Below are positions 2,741-32,446 of a stretch of DNA of 64,000 nucleotides, in pieces. The stretch is from NCBI GenBank assembly GCA_963727825.1, contig CAVSHO010000009.1:352001-416000 (forward strand), in the 5' to 3' direction. Source of the DNA: Ignavibacteriota bacterium (GTDB taxonomy: Bacteria > Bacteroidota > Ignavibacteria > UBA10030). The notes under the pieces were generated by a model. The model searched no databases. It saw only the letters and a program-made list of their open reading frames with translations, and was not told the origin of the DNA. Both the position numbers and the translations under genes were made by a program. How positions within the stretch are numbered: position 1 is the first letter of the stretch; each line of letters begins with the position of its first letter.

Positions 2741-3231
2741 TCACCACCGCCTTTCGTGAGAGCATGTCCCCGGATTATTGCCCGGATGGCAAAATGTACT
2801 ACTAGCAGTCCAAAGCCGACCGGAATAATGATCTGGGCATACCACACGGGGATATTCTGATACATCATTTGTCCTGCCGCTTTTTCGGATTCAACAAAAA
2901 CCCGGGCAGCATTCATCAGAAAGTAACAGACAATCGCGGCGAAGAGGTCTGTAATAGCATCAACAGCAGAGCGAATACGAGGAGGAAGGAATCGCCGAAG
3001 GGCATCGATATTGATATGCCGTTTTTCACTGGTGGCAATTGCAGCACCAAGAAATCCAATCCAGAGGACAAGGTGTCGTAATAAAACATCTGCGCCATTG
3101 ATACCCGTATGGAATACATTTCGCAGCATGACCTGGCTGAATGCGACCAGCACCATGATAGAAAGCATCAGAATAAGCAGGGCGCCTTCAACTTTGTTGA
3201 GAGCAAGATCAAAAGATTTAAGTATCTTCAT
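2737..3231 (-). CDS. dctQ: TRAP transporter small permease (DctQ family)
   Basis: 164 aa, 4 TM segments, LWIGFLGA...HINID motif; lies between dctP and dctM with 4-bp overlaps. Confidence 0.9.
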   Translation of the reverse strand: MKILKSFDLALNKVEGALLILMLSIMVLVAFSQVMLRNVFHTGINGADVLLRHLVLWIGFLGAAIATSEKRHINIDALRRFLPPRIRSAVDAITDLFAAIVCYFLMNAARVFVESEKAAGQMMYQNIPVWYAQIIIPVGFGLLVVHFAIRAIIRGHALTKGGGE

Positions 3232-4235
3232 TTAGATTTACGGCTCTTTCTATAATCAGCAACTTCATTTTCTACGCGTTTTAAAAATCCTTCATCATAT
3301 AGTTTGCCGAGAAGCATTCTACGCGCGCGGGTGCCTGTTTCAATATATTCTTTTGTTGCTTTTGCATCTGCCTTAGTAAAAATAATGCCTCGCTTTTTTA
3401 ATTCAATCAACGAATTCTGGTTGTCCTTACGCCCAAGCTCAGTAAGCTTATTCATGTAGATTTTTCCATTACGAAGAAGAATTTCTTTGAGATCAGCGGG
3501 CAGGTTGTCGAAAAACTTTTTTGAGATGACAACAGCACCGGTCGAACAAGTTAATGGGAAATCGACGACATACTTCGCTTGTGTATACCATTGCAACGAA
3601 ATTCCTGCATAAGGCGTTGTATAGAACGCATTGATCAATCCCGTTTGAAGAGAAGTATAGACGTTATCGATGGAAAGTGGAATAGGCGTAAGGCCAATGG
3701 CAGCAAATGCGGTTTCAGCAACCGGGTCGCCTTCCCATACCCACATTTTCTGCTGCTTAATATCTGAAGGCTGCATAATTGGCGTCTTGCTGAACACATA
3801 CACAAATCCAATTTCAACTAAACCAAGTAATTCGTATCCGTTTGCTTCAAATGCCCCGCGAATTTCTCCGTCAAATTTATTATACAGATTATCGGCTTCA
3901 TCGCTCGTTTGAATGAGGAAGGGTGCATCGAACAATCGAATCTTCGGCGCTATTTCGCCAAGTCCGACACCTGTGAATCCGGCTGCGTGCAATTGGCCAA
4001 CAGAAATTTTTCGCACCACCGTTTTTTCATCTCCCTGTACCATACCCGGATACATTTTGAACCCAAGGCGTCCACCGCTCTCTTGCCGGATTGTTTTATC
4101 ATATTCATGCATCACATTCATCCATGTAGTACCTTCTGGAGAAATAGAAGCGAATTTGATTAAATATTGCTGGGAAAAGCAAGTGTAGAAGTAAAAGGTA
4201 AAAAGTAAAAAGTAACTTAAGTGTTTAATATTCAT
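3228..4235 (-). CDS. dctP: TRAP substrate-binding protein (DctP/TatP type)
   Basis: Signal peptide, IKFASISPEGTTW, GVQGDE-like motif, VYTSLQTGLINA. Confidence 0.88.
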   Translation of the reverse strand: MNIKHLSYFLLFTFYFYTCFSQQYLIKFASISPEGTTWMNVMHEYDKTIRQESGGRLGFKMYPGMVQGDEKTVVRKISVGQLHAAGFTGVGLGEIAPKIRLFDAPFLIQTSDEADNLYNKFDGEIRGAFEANGYELLGLVEIGFVYVFSKTPIMQPSDIKQQKMWVWEGDPVAETAFAAIGLTPIPLSIDNVYTSLQTGLINAFYTTPYAGISLQWYTQAKYVVDFPLTCSTGAVVISKKFFDNLPADLKEILLRNGKIYMNKLTELGRKDNQNSLIELKKRGIIFTKADAKATKEYIETGTRARRMLLGKLYDEGFLKRVENEVADYRKSRKSK

Positions 4236-25877: not shown

Positions 25878-26464
25878 TTAAAAGAATAGTACATCTTTTG
25901 GGGTTTCTTTGTCAAATGTCCATGTAATGACATTATTGGCAATGTAATCGCGGATGTTATTTAATTCTTTTTCATTGCGGATAATTCGGTCATAATATCT
26001 TGGCTGCCAAAGCGGTGTATCCCCCGCACCGGTTAAATGCATTTCATTGATTCGTTTTGTAACAGCAGATTTGAATGACCTCACAATTGTCGACAATGAA
26101 CCAGGTACTGGTTTCCTGAATTGTTCCAGTAGTAGGGACGCGGCATGCCGTGTCCCTACTGATTCATTCAATATTAATATTCCATGAATATGGTTCGGCA
26201 GCCGGAGGCCTTAGAATGTTGCCCCGCATCGTGGGGCACCTTCTTTTCATATTCATCCAATACAACATTCGAAAAATGCTCCGGAATTCCTTTCCAACAT
26301 CTATTAATAATATTTCCCTCCTCATTCAAATTCATCTTACCGTCTACAATTGCACCAAACCTGTGTTCATGATTTTGTGCACAAATTGTTACAAAATATT
26401 CTCCCGGCTGGGAATAATCAAATCCTTTAAGGCGAATCGTTTTTCTTTTATGCTTTTCTATCAT
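25878..26464 (-). mobile_element. REP-associated tyrosine transposase (RAYT/TnpA-REP, Y1 HUH) pseudogene
   Basis: RKTIRLKGFDYSQPGEYFVTIC, HUH motif PNHIHG (different frame after a ~40-bp insertion), SLSTIVRSFKS, WQPRYYDRIIRNEKEL...YIANN. Confidence 0.85.
26132..26159. repeat. GTAG-type REP palindrome inside the RAYT coding sequence
   Basis: GTAGGGACGCGGCATGCCGTGTCCCTAC. Confidence 0.8.
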
Positions 26465-26488
26465 CAACACGATTTCAAAACACAACCG

Positions 26489-26598
26489 CCTCACGCTGGA
26501 AGGGAGTTTCACTCCCGACCTTTGCTTGCTCGGGAGAACATCTCCCTCGCAACTTTGTTCCAAAACACAAAACGCCGATGATGTTTCCAACACCGGCG
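26489..26598. repeat. ~110-bp direct repeat B: REP doublet plus copy 3 of the terminator hairpin
   Basis: Matches 25746-25854; hairpin at 26561-26598 lies just after the serine hydrolase stop. Confidence 0.85.
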
Positions 26599-27991: not shown

Positions 27992-28119
27992 AGCGTTACT
28001 CCTTGTTTATAGAAATTGTACGTTTGACGTTGGCTGTAAAAGATTGTTCCGTCCGACCATTGTGCCATACTCTCCCGAGAGTCAAACTGATGCTCCGGAG
28101 TGATAAGGTAAGCCACTTT

Positions 28120-28156
28120 AAAACACAAACGCCGATGATGTTTCCACCACCGGCGC
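28120..28156 (-). terminator. Repeated terminator-like hairpin, copy 4 (after the RT gene)
   Basis: AAAACACAAACGCCGATGATGTTTCCACCACCGGCG on the plus strand. Confidence 0.75.
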
Positions 28157-28198: not shown

Positions 28199-29041
28199 TT
28201 AATCCGTGTCTTTTACCATTCTCTTTAGATCATCAGCCTGTTGAGGATTTACATATGCTATATAGTCAATTTTCCCTTTGATCGATTTATAGCTTCCTTT
28301 TAAGTTCTTTTTGTAGTCAACAATTTCATGTTTCACGGCATCAACATAACGTTGATTAACCCTTAGTTTAGGATATACTCCAATTCCCATTATCTCTCTT
28401 GGAGATTTGTTATTAAAGACCTCAAATTCATCAAGTAGAAATCCATGCTGTCTAAATATTTTTACAAATAATCTTTGAAACCCTGCTGGGTCAAAATCTG
28501 ACCCAATCACTAAATTGTCTGCATACAGACCGACTCGGAACGCCTCTTTTCCCGCCAATCCGTCGAGTCGAATTATTACAGGATTTAAAGTAAGTGCAGC
28601 AATTTTTGGACTTGTTGGAAATCCTTGAGGAAGTTCAAAATCAAAGGTTATTATTCTTGTAATTAGTTTTGCTGCAGGATTATCAAAATTCAAACCCATG
28701 AGTGTTTTTGTCACCATTGCAGGATAGATTGTAGGATAAAAATCATCGACATCCGCTGCAATCAAGAACTTCGACTTTGAAAATTGAGAAAGCATTTTGA
28801 TATGATTACATCCAGGTTGTAAAAAAAGGAATTTATGCAAAGTGAATTGGCTTAAGATCATCTTATTTATTTTGCGCAACAGATCTTTTAATTCCTCGTT
28901 TGGACATGTGATATCTCGATATCCTCCACTCTTCTTTGCCTTCTTCCGCTTTTTCACCATATAAGACAGATTGCGTGCAATAAAAGAAAGATACTCTTCT
29001 CTTTTATTAAGACGATTCGCAATCTCCTGGATTAAGATCAT
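28199..29041 (-). CDS. Retron-like reverse transcriptase with non-canonical motifs (start ATG 29041 or TTG 29053)
   Basis: KKSGGYRDITCP (RT1), ADVDDFYPTI (RT3), LPQGFPTSP (RT4), LYADNLVI (RT5), IMG (at the VTG position), C-terminal GKIDYIAYVN; about 280 aa with no maturase, Cas1 or nuclease domain. Confidence 0.85.
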   Translation of the reverse strand: MILIQEIANRLNKREEYLSFIARNLSYMVKKRKKAKKSGGYRDITCPNEELKDLLRKINKMILSQFTLHKFLFLQPGCNHIKMLSQFSKSKFLIAADVDDFYPTIYPAMVTKTLMGLNFDNPAAKLITRIITFDFELPQGFPTSPKIAALTLNPVIIRLDGLAGKEAFRVGLYADNLVIGSDFDPAGFQRLFVKIFRQHGFLLDEFEVFNNKSPREIMGIGVYPKLRVNQRYVDAVKHEIVDYKKNLKGSYKSIKGKIDYIAYVNPQQADDLKRMVKDTD

Positions 29042-29053
29042 TGAGGTGAACAA

Positions 29054-29296
29054 TTAATAAGATTGAATAAGTAGTGTTCGTTGGGGTTCTAAATAAGTTT
29101 TGTGGGAGAAGCTCACGATGATCGAGATTAACTTAGCAATAAATTCTAAAACTCTTAACAAAAAACCCAAAGGTTTTTCATTCCGATTTAAGAATTTAAC
29201 AAACTTACTTTTCTTTCTCGAATATCTATAAAGCTTCTCCCTTCTCCTGATTCGATTATAACATCGAATTAAGCGAAGTACAAGCTTCCTTTTCAT
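29054..29296 (-). CDS. Small basic protein with hydrophobic/amphipathic helix, candidate RT-associated effector
   Basis: Strong AGGAGG Shine-Dalgarno upstream of the ATG; K/R-rich N-half; LGFLLRVLEFIAKLISIIVSF helix; in frame with the RT. Confidence 0.65.
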   Translation of the reverse strand: MKRKLVLRLIRCYNRIRRREKLYRYSRKKSKFVKFLNRNEKPLGFLLRVLEFIAKLISIIVSFSHKTYLEPQRTLLIQSY

Positions 29297-29581
29297 GTTC
29301 TTTTCCTCCTTTCTAATCGTTTAGTGGAACATATCATTATGAATCGATGATTAGTCGCCACAATGCCTGTACTTTCAAAACTTGAAAAAAAACGCATAGA
29401 GCGTTTCGTTTTATCCATGCATTGCACTGTATAAATTTCTGCAATTGCATAATTGTCTAATAAACAGATATATATTCTCCTATTTATTAGAAATTCTCAG
29501 ATTGGTTTGAACACATATACCCAAATCAACCGAGATACGGCTAGTTTCGCCGGGAAAAGAGGCTAACCTTAGAACATGAAA
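29291..29581 (-). ncRNA. Putative RT-associated structured ncRNA (msr-msd-like)
   Basis: Perfect 11-bp terminal inverted repeat TTTCATGTTCT/AGAACATGAAA enclosing hairpins at 29539-29568, 29495-29535, 29456-29491, 29417-29450, 29390-29406 and 29313-29354. G-U pairs in the first three favour the minus strand. Confidence 0.7.
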
Positions 29582-29689
29582 TTTCAAAGAACATCTAACA
29601 ACTAAAACAAAAAACATTTCTTAAAAAATATTATCAAGAAAAACCGTTCGTGTTTCCATCCCACCAAACAACGTCGGGACGTCAGCATA

Positions 29690-32446
29690 TCAGGAACATC
29701 CTGATGTGCTTCCACACTCCAGACATTTGTAACACGAGCCGCTTCGAATCATAATGCTTCCGCACTCGTGGCATGGAGGTGCATCGGATTGTGTTTCAAA
29801 TACAAATTTCTCGTTCTTCTCCAGCACCGAGGCAGCTTTTGTCGCCGCAGCATTGAGAATCGCACCCGGTTTTTTCGCAGTCTCTGCACTAATTTTTACA
29901 TCGCTCATTGGCGCCTCACCGCGATCCTCTATAAGGAACTTCTTACCAAGCCATCGGAAAATATAATCGCTAACCGACTTTGCAATCGGTATCTCCGGAT
30001 TGTTAGTAAAACCGGATGGTTCATAGCGCGCGTGGCTGAACTTATCCACCAGCACTTTCAGCGGCACACCGTACTGCAGAGCAATCGAAACAGACGTTGC
30101 CAGAGAATCCATTAATCCGGAAATCGTGGAACCCTCTTTAGACATCGTTATGAACAACTCGCCGGGTGATCCGTCTTCAAACATCCCGACGGTGATATAA
30201 CCTTCGTGGCCGGCAATACTGAATTTGTGCGTGATAGATTGGCGTTCATCCGGCAAATGCCGCCGGGCAGGTTTGTTACTTATCTGCAGTTTTTCCTTTT
30301 TCTTGTCGAGTGAAGTACTGAGAGGCTGTGTACGCTTGCATCCGTCGCGGTATACAGCAATAGCTTTTAATCCAAGTCTCCATGCTTCGGTATACGCTTT
30401 CATGATATCTTCTGCATTCACATCGGTCGGCATGTTCACAGTTTTGGAGATCGCACCGGAAAGGAATGGTTGTGATGCCGCCATCATCTTAATATGCCCC
30501 ATATAGGGAATGAAGCGCTTGCCGTTTGCCGGTTTGAATGCGCAGTCAAATACCCGAAGATGTTCTTCCTTCAAATGCGGCGCACCTTCGATTGTGTCGT
30601 TCTTATCGATATAAGAAATAATGTGTTCAATCTGTTCATCGTCGTAGCCCAATTTCGTGAGTGCTTCCGGCACTGTTTGGTTGACGATCTTCATCAATCC
30701 GCCACCGCTCATCTTTTTATACTTCACAAGAGCGATATCAGGTTCAATTCCTGTGGTGTCACAATCCATCATGAACCCGATTGTGCCTGTCGGAGCAAGA
30801 ACTGTCGTTTGCGAATTGCGGATGCCGTGCATTCGTCCAAGTTCAACAACATCTTTCCATACGTTACACTGCGCTTCCCATAGACTTGGTTCTACCGCAT
30901 TCTTATCGATGCGTTCTGCGTGAATGCCATGTTTCGCCATCACGTTCAACATCGGGTCTTTATTTACTGCGAATCCGCTAAACGGTCCTTGTGCTTGAGC
31001 AATCTTAGCAGATTGTTTGTACGCTTCGCCACTCATTAATGATGTGATAGCAGCGGTTAATGTTCTGCCCTCATCGCTATCGTACGCAACACCGCGGGAC
31101 ATCAGCATTGCGCCGAGGTTTGCATACCCGAGTCCGAGCGGGCGATAGTCGTGGCTGTTTTGCGCAATTGCCGGTGTCGGGTAACTCGAGTTATCAACGG
31201 ACATTTCCATTGCGGTAATTGTAACCTGAATAGCTTTTTTAAACGCTTCCACATCGAGATCGCCGTTTGCCCTACGAAACTTCATCAGGTTCAAAGATGC
31301 AAGGTTGCATGCACTGTCATCAAGGAACATGTACTCGCTGCAAGGATTGGATGAATAAATCGGTGCGGTACCGGAACATGTGTGCCAGTTGTTGATCGTT
31401 GTATCAAATTGAATACCCGGGTCGCCACATATCCATGCTGCATCGGCAATTTGTTTCATCAGATCGCGCGCGCGGAATTTTTCTACCGGCATTCCGCCTT
31501 TTACAGCTTTGGTCCAAAATTCCTTATCTTCCAGAACAGCTTTCATGAATTCATCGCTTACACGAATAGAGTGATTGGCGTTTTGATAGAACACAGAATC
31601 ATACGCGCCGCCTGGAACATTGAATCCACCGTCGTAACCCGCATCGATGAGCGCACAAGCTTTTTTCTCTTCTTCCGCTTTACAATTGATGAAACTGATA
31701 ATATCCGGATGGTCGACATTTAATATTACCATCTTTGCAGCGCGGCGTGTCTTGCCACCGGATTTAATCACGCCTGCAAACGCATCGTACCCTTTCATAA
31801 ACGAAACCGGGCCGGATGCAGTACCGCCGCCGGTAATGCGTTCCTTGGAAGAACGAAGTGTCGAAAGATTAGAACCTGTGCCCGAACCGTACTTAAAGAG
31901 CATACCTTCTGTCTTTGCAAGCTCCAGTATGGAGGTCATTGAATCTTTCACTGAATTAATAAAGCAGGCCGAACATTGCGGCATTTTTTCTACACCCACA
32001 TTAAACCATACCGGGCTGTTGAAGGACATATATTGATTGACGAGAATGAAGACCAGTTCATTATAAAATATTTCTGCGTCTTCTTCCGACGCGAAATAGC
32101 CATCTTTCAAACCCCAGGCATAGTACGATTTTGCAACACGGTCGACAAGCTGACGTATGCTCGTTTCACGCTCTGGAGTACCCATTTGACCATAGAAATA
32201 TTTTGAAACAACAACATTAGTTGCAGTCATTGACCAAAACTTTGGGATTTCTACATCTTTCTGTTCAAAGATTTTTTCACCACGATCATTTGAAATAATT
32301 GCAGTGCGTAGTTCCCATTCAATTTCATTAAAAGGATGAATACCTCGTTTAGTAAAGTACCGCTCAAAACGCAATCCGTGTTTTTCTGTGGCGTGCATAT
32401 TATTATGAGAATCTACCGAAACATTGGCTGGTTGCAAATTCTGCAT
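29690..32446 (-). CDS. nrdJ: Class II (adenosylcobalamin-dependent) ribonucleotide reductase with C-terminal TSCPD/Zn-ribbon
   Basis: QCSACFI, NPCSEY, LGLGYANLG, APTGTIG, GAISKTVN, C-terminal CHECG...CLECGSTSGCS. Confidence 0.95.
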   Translation of the reverse strand: MQNLQPANVSVDSHNNMHATEKHGLRFERYFTKRGIHPFNEIEWELRTAIISNDRGEKIFEQKDVEIPKFWSMTATNVVVSKYFYGQMGTPERETSIRQLVDRVAKSYYAWGLKDGYFASEEDAEIFYNELVFILVNQYMSFNSPVWFNVGVEKMPQCSACFINSVKDSMTSILELAKTEGMLFKYGSGTGSNLSTLRSSKERITGGGTASGPVSFMKGYDAFAGVIKSGGKTRRAAKMVILNVDHPDIISFINCKAEEEKKACALIDAGYDGGFNVPGGAYDSVFYQNANHSIRVSDEFMKAVLEDKEFWTKAVKGGMPVEKFRARDLMKQIADAAWICGDPGIQFDTTINNWHTCSGTAPIYSSNPCSEYMFLDDSACNLASLNLMKFRRANGDLDVEAFKKAIQVTITAMEMSVDNSSYPTPAIAQNSHDYRPLGLGYANLGAMLMSRGVAYDSDEGRTLTAAITSLMSGEAYKQSAKIAQAQGPFSGFAVNKDPMLNVMAKHGIHAERIDKNAVEPSLWEAQCNVWKDVVELGRMHGIRNSQTTVLAPTGTIGFMMDCDTTGIEPDIALVKYKKMSGGGLMKIVNQTVPEALTKLGYDDEQIEHIISYIDKNDTIEGAPHLKEEHLRVFDCAFKPANGKRFIPYMGHIKMMAASQPFLSGAISKTVNMPTDVNAEDIMKAYTEAWRLGLKAIAVYRDGCKRTQPLSTSLDKKKEKLQISNKPARRHLPDERQSITHKFSIAGHEGYITVGMFEDGSPGELFITMSKEGSTISGLMDSLATSVSIALQYGVPLKVLVDKFSHARYEPSGFTNNPEIPIAKSVSDYIFRWLGKKFLIEDRGEAPMSDVKISAETAKKPGAILNAAATKAASVLEKNEKFVFETQSDAPPCHECGSIMIRSGSCYKCLECGSTSGCS

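Follow-up and report, generated by a model that had tools for sequence, protein, structure and literature searches.

A structured leader RNA predicted to sequester the start of a small helical protein gene ahead of a retron-type reverse transcriptase in an Ignavibacteriota bacterium: a putative compact counterpart of Type VI hybrid RNAs

We analysed a 64,000-nucleotide (nt) stretch of DNA (hereafter the window) from an Ignavibacteriota bacterium (assembly GCA_963727825.1, contig CAVSHO010000009.1, positions 352,001 to 416,000), and in it a structured RNA leader that precedes a small protein gene and a reverse transcriptase (RT) gene. All genes around the leader are on the minus strand. They are, in order of reading, the gene of a class II ribonucleotide reductase (RNR; 32446–29690; Pfam Ribonuc_red_lgC, 2.8e-145), the leader (~29297–29592), a gene for a small protein (SP) of 80 amino acids (aa; 29054–29296) and the gene of a retron-type RT of 280 aa (28199–29041; RVT_1, 4.2e-12), whose motif C reads YADN. 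The gap between the RNR gene and the SP open reading frame (ORF) measures 393 nt, and SP and RT are 12 nt apart. A preliminary description of this DNA had placed a structured RNA upstream of the RT. The shared strand is borne out, but the RNA does not adjoin the RT, because the conserved 80-codon SP gene, then missed, lies between them.

The locus of the window (hereafter WIN) was compared with related loci (L-numbers). A metagenome scan yielded 63 loci. The RTs of L002 and L003 are 71% and 61% identical to that of WIN, and both loci have an RNR gene upstream; the RTs of L004, L005, L008 and L009 are only 37–41% identical, and L008 is identical to L065, from a Wenzhouxiangella metagenome-assembled genome. 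Genome contigs gave no relatives in a scan with the single protein, and 25 loci in an alignment-based scan, of which only L065 falls in the RT clade. A search of 401 genomes of the same phylum returned a strong RT match only in the own genome (none in five genomes of the same genus and none in 17 of the family); the other 16 same-phylum matches score at most 108 bits and represent other RT types.

The SP gene is a real, conserved gene for a helical small protein. It has exactly 80 codons in WIN, L002 and L003, and the differences between WIN and L002 are distributed as 3/10/19 over the codon positions, with conservative substitutions. Homologues of 108–110 codons stand directly before RT or overlap it in L004, L005, L008 and L009 and share the C-terminal pattern ..LL.K[VI][VI]S[LI]...[FI]S.KT[CY]. 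An SP homologue is located ahead of RT in seven of the eight distinct loci of the clade. The N-terminal half of the protein is basic and its C-terminal helix hydrophobic, and its AlphaFold model is helical throughout (residues 2–27, 31–38 and 40–79; mean pLDDT 79.5, pTM 0.34). It has no Pfam match, and a profile search among 5.8 billion proteins found 12 proteins of 80–162 aa, all unnamed. By analogy with the systems compared below, the SP is a putative toxic effector.

Two side observations concern the reading frames around SP. A leader ORF of 44 codons (29293–29427; 40 codons in L002) ends in a TGA that overlaps the SP ATG (ATGA); an upstream ORF in the leader was rejected, no counterpart of at least 40 codons being listed in L003 and L004. 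SP and RT share one frame in WIN and L002, with a single TAA between them (29054–29056), and a read-through fusion was rejected because L003 and L004 have the two genes in different frames.

The leader is 296 nt long, and its conservation starts at 29593. By blastn, WIN 29593–29042 is 89% identical to L002 and 29593–29216 is 74% identical to L003, while the 118 nt between the RNR gene and 29593 (29594–29711) are not conserved. The inverted repeat that the preliminary description had noticed, TTTCATGTTCT (29291–29301) and AGAACATGAAA (29571–29581), is complementary at all 11 positions. Such an 11-mer repeat is not rare by itself (by our own arithmetic, ~0.1 expected by chance in 900 AT-rich bases); it carries weight because it is conserved, and distant relatives retain it with compensating changes. 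The dense folding of the 291 nt enclosed also holds against 200 dinucleotide shuffles per strand: the minus strand folds at −81.6 kcal/mol as compared with −58.2 ± 5.0 kcal/mol for the shuffles (z −4.68), the plus strand at −69.1 kcal/mol (z −4.45), and on either strand 0 of the 200 shuffles were as good. Similar z-scores on both strands and a repeat that is unremarkable alone are what a chance structure in AT-rich intergenic DNA might give. This explanation is refuted by conservation, and we consider it scarcely credible: the identities of 74–89% stop at a spacer that is not conserved, and the same architecture recurs in loci whose RTs are only 37–41% identical.

That the RNA is read from the minus (RT-sense) strand, as first proposed from G–U pairs, is supported by the consensus of three loci, which holds such pairs. 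Arm substitutions of C to U in L002 and of A to G in L003 give U–G pairs on the minus strand and A–C mismatches on the plus strand. Most stems listed earlier reappear in the minimum free energy (MFE) fold (29495–29535, 29456–29491 with 12 bp, 29416–29451, 29389–29407, 29372–29388 and 29324–29361). The exception is a local stem at 29539–29568; in its place the MFE fold and all relatives have a long-range stem (29554–29562/29305–29313) and a hairpin (29538–29552).

Seven leaders from four lineages, folded separately, reveal a common order of elements: (i) a closing stem with the AUG region in it; (ii) a stem of 9–12 bp between an anti-Shine–Dalgarno element (anti-SD) and the SP Shine–Dalgarno site (SD); (iii) a hairpin of 4–7 bp after the anti-SD; (iv) a UUUGGG hairpin; (v) a variable centre; (vi) an A-rich/U-rich hairpin followed by CAAGU; (vii) a long 3' hairpin; and (viii) a conserved GAACGAUCAGAAAGGAGG. 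In WIN, the closing stem's 5' arm (a1-like; UUUCAUGUUCU, 29571–29581) was identified by repeat search and MFE fold, and the 3' arm (a2-like; AGAACAUGAAA, 29291–29301) holds the SP AUG (29294–29296). Just 5' of this stem is GUUCUUU (29586–29592), invariant in all seven loci (alignment columns 9–15). The anti-SD CCUCUUUUC (29562–29554) pairs long-range with the SD GAAAGGAGG (29313–29305) in the MFE fold, and an equivalent stem is present in 7/7 loci.

The small hairpin directly 3' of the anti-SD (CGGC/GCCG, 29538–29552) occupies the same place in all seven loci, with its pairs changed to CGACAU/AUGUCG in L008 and CAGCC/GGCUG in L009. Folds and alignment then define a two-part hairpin with conserved UUUGGG..AU.U.U (29495–29535). 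The central hairpins (29416–29491, i.e. 29456–29491 and 29416–29451) vary by lineage in sequence and hairpin number. They are followed by the A-rich/U-rich hairpin (29389–29407), with the U run at 29385–29392, and by conserved CAAGU (29380–29384), which together span 29380–29407. The long 3' hairpin (29324–29361) has a counterpart of 8–12 bp with a different sequence in L004, L005, L008 and L009. The conserved AAACGAUUAGAAAGGAGG (29305–29322) contains the Shine–Dalgarno GGAGG at 29305–29309; its pattern occurs in WIN, L002, L004, L005, L008, L009 and L065, in none of 82 other loci and once in the own genome. A match of the pattern in a viral contig (L091) was rejected as chance, as it lies inside a phage ORF with no RT. 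An Rfam scan of the window from 20 to 40 kb found no family on the leader, retron msr included; its sole match was a weak RsmY elsewhere (E 0.16).

The pairing is maintained by changes on both sides. The closing-stem arms vary by lineage (UUUCAU/AUGAAA, UCUCAU/AUGAGA, UCAUCU/AGAUGA and AUUCAGUA/UGCUGAAU) and match within each; the variation comes from SP codons 2–4, and the 5' arm changes with them. Own arms form duplexes of −8.6 to −18.8 kcal/mol, and most cross-lineage combinations duplexes of −2 to −9 kcal/mol. For WIN, L002 and L003 together, RNAalifold predicts 98 pairs, 11 of which are changed on both sides, and the 12-bp stem 29456–29491 has three such changes between WIN and L003. The MAFFT alignment of seven loci is one column off at the anti-SD. 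A covariance model of 272 positions built from L008/L065 matches L009 over its full length (26.9 bits, E 2e-5).

Folding extends into the SP coding sequence (CDS), with z-scores of −4.38 for WIN and −4.07 for L008; the value for L004 is only −0.72. A long-range helix within it (29104–29241) joins GGGAGAAGCU (29241–29232) and AGCUUCUCCC (29113–29104) at 10 of 10 positions; it has two both-side changes in L003 and analogous arms in L004 and L008. The fold of 29620–29030 has three arms (i.e. the leader, an early-CDS hairpin and the remaining CDS).

Two stacked long-range stems thus close the leader, one between UUUCAUGUUCU and the start-codon region and the other between CCUCUUUUC and the Shine–Dalgarno site. 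GAAAGGAGG precedes the SP AUG at normal spacing, and SD-like words before 11 of 31 long ORFs of the window (a crude count) indicate that this organism uses Shine–Dalgarno sites. As both basal stems bury SD and AUG, the SP is predicted to be untranslatable from the folded RNA. In WIN the partition function gives a probability of being unpaired of 0.002 for the SD and 0.001 for the AUG. Across the seven loci the SD is predicted to be paired in every case despite differing leader sequences (0.000–0.049 unpaired, compared with 0.18–0.41 when the leader is shuffled), and the AUG value is at most 0.008 in five of them. Since the 3' arm is the start codon and the next stem is the SD, the repeat is at least a translational lock, and we are highly confident that the leader acts as such a lock on a real gene.

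The RT belongs with retron RTs. In PADLOC, the best 25 of 38 matches are all to retron RT profiles (RT_II-A 118 bits, RT_VI 117 bits); the best NCBIfam match is retron_St85_RT (103.8 bits, below the cut-off of 235), and the typical retron N-terminal region aligns from residue 8. Nine database homologues are mostly 280 aa long and start at the same Met. This supports the earlier statement that a structured RNA on the RT-sense strand belongs to a retron-type RT. Motif C (near 28515–28526) reads YADN instead of YADD: Y[AG]DN is found in all ten clade representatives and in 9/9 close homologues, and xxDD outside the clade, although the clade member L009 has YADD. Retron RTs have the signature motifs NAxxH and VTG. 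At these positions the window RT departs from both (KMLSQF and IMG); the other retron RTs in the set have NAxxH and [VIT]TG, and the H is retained in L004, L006 and L008. Nothing varies in motifs A and B or at the first Asp of motif C, and purifying selection on the RT is clear. A literature search for 'YADN' with 'reverse transcriptase' returned unrelated matters only.

The clade appears to be small and separate from other retron RTs: among 1.84 billion proteins it has ten representatives at E ≤ 1e-30, and the scores then drop from 148 to 112 bits. In a quick tree of 42 RTs it is monophyletic (8 rows, SH-aLRT 98) and groups with L045 and the VI-labelled L011 (95). L006 and L007, which belong to this RT clade and are nearly identical to each other, have neither leader nor SP; at 3091–4008 they encode a lipoprotein-like ORF of 305 aa (weak Exo_endo_phos, 3.7e-05) whose end overlaps the RT start.

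We compared this organization with that of known retrons, taking the latter from the accessible parts of the reports cited. Type VI retrons correspond to RT clade 3, with a reported SP size range of 75–79 aa (Mestre et al. 2020, PMC7736814), and published Type VI SPs form several mutually unrelated clusters. Retron-Vpa2 produces a hybrid RNA of ~470 nt that combines an msr-msd part with the SP CDS and has the ribosome-binding site (RBS) of SP and the AUG within stems. Direct repeats of 7 nt are conserved in it. Its SP is toxic via a hydrophobic C-terminal helix and is translationally repressed; multicopy single-stranded DNA (msDNA) accumulates on triggering only and is needed for SP translation; reverse transcription is required for defence, and a helix-turn-helix (HTH) protein represses it (Zhang et al., 10.1101/2025.10.22.683967). 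For Retron-Sen3 and 53 relatives, the non-coding RNA (ncRNA) is described as no more than ~280 nt from the SP start. It is bounded by paired inverted repeats, has multiple stem-loops and a segment at its centre that varies, and its basal stem includes the RBS of SP; the SP CDS covaries and is under RNA structural selection. An HTH is carried by ~78% of Type VI systems, and in Retron-Sen3 SP and single-stranded DNA are constitutive, the HTH being an antitoxin that neutralizes the SP (Garcia-Rodriguez et al., 10.64898/2026.04.27.721009).

Type VI hybrid RNAs (Retron-Vpa2 and Retron-Sen3) appear to be the closest known counterparts of the leader, which by this analogy matches them point for point at the RNA level and would be the non-coding, msr-msd-like part of a putative hybrid RNA. 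As in the account of Vpa2, one structured transcript is predicted to unite an msr-msd-like part with the CDS of a small, putatively toxic protein, the SP has a hydrophobic C-terminal helix, and the fold has three arms, with the SP CDS forming its own. As described for Sen3 and cl2075, the RNA stands by the SP start (here with a leader of 296 nt) and has paired end repeats, stem-loops, a variable centre and the SP RBS in its basal stem, and the SP CDS is structured. At the protein level, a small accessory gene, here for a helical protein of 80 aa, is upstream on the same strand.

The differences are equally specific. The Vpa2 report describes an HTH gene that separates SP from RT, and a YADD motif, whereas the unit studied here has no HTH and a YADN motif. 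The Sen3 report describes constitutive SP and single-stranded DNA, an HTH antitoxin, hosts in the Proteobacteria and other RT and SP families; it places the RBS in the basal stem, whereas here the start codon is paired too. Loci whose RT is best classed as RT_VI show the order SP–HTH–RT, and as a control all four HTH candidates from Type VI-like loci gave a Pfam HTH_3 match. L078, whose RT is clearly RT_VI (249 bits), has SP directly before RT with no HTH ORF listed. What is known here is therefore the Type VI layout, and what is new is its occurrence without HTH, with a separate YADN RT clade and with an apparently new SP family that is set apart in sequence from the nine SPs of the collected Type VI-like loci.

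Type I toxin mRNAs control toxin translation by fold-back leaders; in messengers such as hok, a small hydrophobic toxin has its SD locked by long-range pairing within the folded mRNA. The leader resembles them in that a small hydrophobic putative toxin has its SD locked in the same manner in its own mRNA, but the locus shows no antisense RNA gene and has a reverse transcriptase as partner. The leader could be nothing more than a translational lock on a toxin messenger, without being reverse transcribed, with the YADN RT inactive or serving as an RNA-binding regulator. SD and AUG are sequestered in all lineages, the leader contains two alternative anti-SD elements and no long single msd-like hairpin, Y[AG]DN is shared by the ten representatives and nine close homologues, and the NAxxH and VTG positions are altered. 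However, the RT retains invariant motifs A and B and the first motif C Asp under purifying selection, and L009 even has YADD. Also, a simple lock would not require a variable hairpin centre of ~150 nt, which is reminiscent of Sen3's msd region, likewise described as variable, and Retron-Vpa2 is reported to need reverse transcription for defence (10.1101/2025.10.22.683967). On balance we regard a pure lock as rather unlikely.

A classical retron msr-msd would have an a1/a2 priming stem, a branching G at 29568 or 29567, and msDNA that is constantly abundant and acts as antitoxin. It shares with the locus the general retron features (i.e. a retron-clade RT downstream and a same-strand structured RNA upstream that is closed by an inverted repeat, here kept with covariation), and in WIN, L002 and L003 a G lies 1–4 nt past the arm. 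Compared with the classical layout as described (PMC7736814), however, the MFE fold lacks a long single msd hairpin, RNA and RT are separated by a gene, and the 3' arm coincides with a start codon that stands off from the RT by a whole gene (240 nt). The branching G proposed at 29568 is not conserved in position (AAGG in WIN, GAUG in L002/L003, AAAUU in L004) and does not line up between lineages, the Rfam scan gives no match to any family (retron msr among them), and in the closest studied systems msDNA is, by the accounts available, scarce or no antitoxin. This makes a classical msr-msd improbable.

The preliminary description had been reminded of ncRNAs of defence-associated reverse transcriptases (DRTs), which template repeats or homopolymers, by the many short stems and an internal run of eight U. 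The run is indeed present at 29385–29392. It varies from three to eight U across loci, though, and belongs to a conserved hairpin, as its 3' strand and tail, ahead of the invariant CAAGU. No DRT profile, as would be expected of a DRT/UG-class RT, is among the best 25 of the 38 PADLOC matches, and an effector gene is embedded in the RNA. The suggestion is not supported, and we consider a DRT-type template very improbable. The same hairpin (29389–29407) scored as terminator-like in a terminator scan, on the plus strand only.

The reading that we judge probable is that the leader belongs to a compact retron-like operon (leader, SP and RT) that works like a Type VI hybrid RNA, with the SP toxin locked until triggered. 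By analogy with Vpa2 and Sen3, the RT would bind the leader and make single-stranded DNA from part of the variable central hairpins; the lock would be opened in response to a phage cue, SP would be made and the cell would be stopped. Without an HTH gene, nothing but the RNA fold, perhaps kept in place by the RT, would restrain SP. The central hairpins at 29416–29491 are the candidate template; whether the leader is a template for reverse transcription at all we consider evenly balanced.

Several results weigh against this Type VI-like operon. At the protein level, the insertion contains no HTH gene, only 12 nt lie between the SP stop and the RT ATG, and neither SP nor a 103-aa ORF past the RT has a Pfam match; hhalign of SP against nine SPs of RT_VI-labelled loci gives a probability of 0.2%. 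The RT is not clearly of Type VI: profiles tie RT_VI, RT_II-A and RT_III-A at 117–158 bits, with 249 bits for the clear member L078, and the backbone of the 42-RT tree is unresolved. Given YADN together with KMLSQF and IMG, polymerase activity is not assured. At the RNA level, independent lineages number only four, the L008/L065 covariance model misses WIN and L002–L005 even with filters off, and the 5' arm of the WIN group forms a duplex with the 3' arm of L004 at −13.5 kcal/mol, as stable as own pairs. When the fold includes 30 nt of CDS, L004 is predicted to have an open AUG (0.90) and L009 a half-open one (0.37). cDNA synthesis primed in the classical way would begin across the SD, and it is not obvious that this would release the SD. 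Lastly, RNAalifold on seven loci pairs the SD (AAAGGA) with the invariant GUUCUUU (29592–29586) in all of them. It is possible that GUUCUUU is a second, alternative anti-SD, and we read it as no contradiction; two anti-SD elements might, speculatively, make a two-state switch.

A bolder variant takes up this switch: the clade-wide YADN RT would no longer be an ordinary msDNA polymerase, the RNA fold would replace the HTH antitoxin in a minimal system of two genes, and the RT would be mainly an RNA-bound sensor or chaperone that chooses between the GUUCUUU and CCUCUUUUC pairings, which would be mutually exclusive. We hold it to be doubtful. If true, it would represent a retron-derived, riboregulated toxin switch with little or no need for DNA synthesis.

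Type VI is the one retron type whose RNA both templates DNA and encodes the toxin, and the two studied examples, as reported, disagree on how the toxin is restrained (in Vpa2 its translation is repressed, in Sen3 an HTH serves as antitoxin). With no HTH and with SD and AUG in the closing stems, the present unit may serve as a natural minimal case for control at the RNA level. The clade-wide change of Asp to Asn at a metal-binding position of the RT lets the need for reverse transcription be asked, and a self-contained unit of ~1.5 kb should be easy to move into a laboratory strain.

The boundaries of the unit can be read from its neighbours. In genomes of the same genus (G189, G261 and G073), a GC hairpin with a T run lies ~140–190 nt past the RNR stop. 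In WIN, L002 and L003 the same hairpin lies directly past the RT stop (28155–28119 in WIN), so the unit, with leader, SP and RT only, sits between the RNR gene and the terminator-like hairpin of RNR. From these comparisons, it is a self-contained insertion (a mobile unit) of ~1.5 kb with no other gene. The terminator scan gave no terminator-like site on the minus strand between the RNR gene and the leader, so read-through from RNR is possible. The promoter scan gave sigma-70-like sites no more often than shuffles (2 found, 2.8 expected); one on the minus strand has its −35 element at 29658 and its −10 element ending at 29630.

Further observations concern the sequence just outside or complementary to the leader. 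Stem-loops occur just 5' of GUUCUUU in L008 (GCAGAGAAGUUCUGC, ~3270–3322), L004 (GACAGAGAAGCUCUGUC, ~3300–3335) and L009 (UGACAA..UUGUCA, ~3360–3390), and recall the stem-loop that is described upstream of the 5' repeat in Retron-Sen3; in L008 a promoter-like site (TTGACT-N17-TATATT) stands just ahead. The anti-SD region 29551–29563 is complementary at 13 of 13 positions to the RT CDS at 28542–28554 (residues AGKEA), a match absent in L002 and L003, and the 5' arm 29573–29583 is complementary at 11 of 11 positions to the RT CDS at 28322–28332. Pairing that spans the operon from the leader to the region past the RT was rejected because it is not conserved among WIN, L002 and L003: WIN has a 22-nt match of 77% (29601–29622/28173–28194), L003 a 34-nt match of 71% elsewhere and L002 none.

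The GC hairpin with T run that ends the unit (28119–28155, minus strand; directly past RNR in relatives) is terminator-like or like a repetitive extragenic palindrome (REP). The window contains two copies, the other at 26562–26598, of the form CGCCGGTGGTGG.AACATCA.CGGCG TTTGTGTTTT, i.e. REP-like. The second copy adjoins an ORF of 139 aa (26174–26593) that resembles IS200/RAYT-type transposases by eye; this ORF has no Pfam match, and its L002 counterpart matches Y1_Tnp (5e-07). T-rich words like TTTTGTTTTAG occur at both ends of the insertion (29600–29615 and 28113–28129), and may be either a trace of insertion or plain T-rich sequence.

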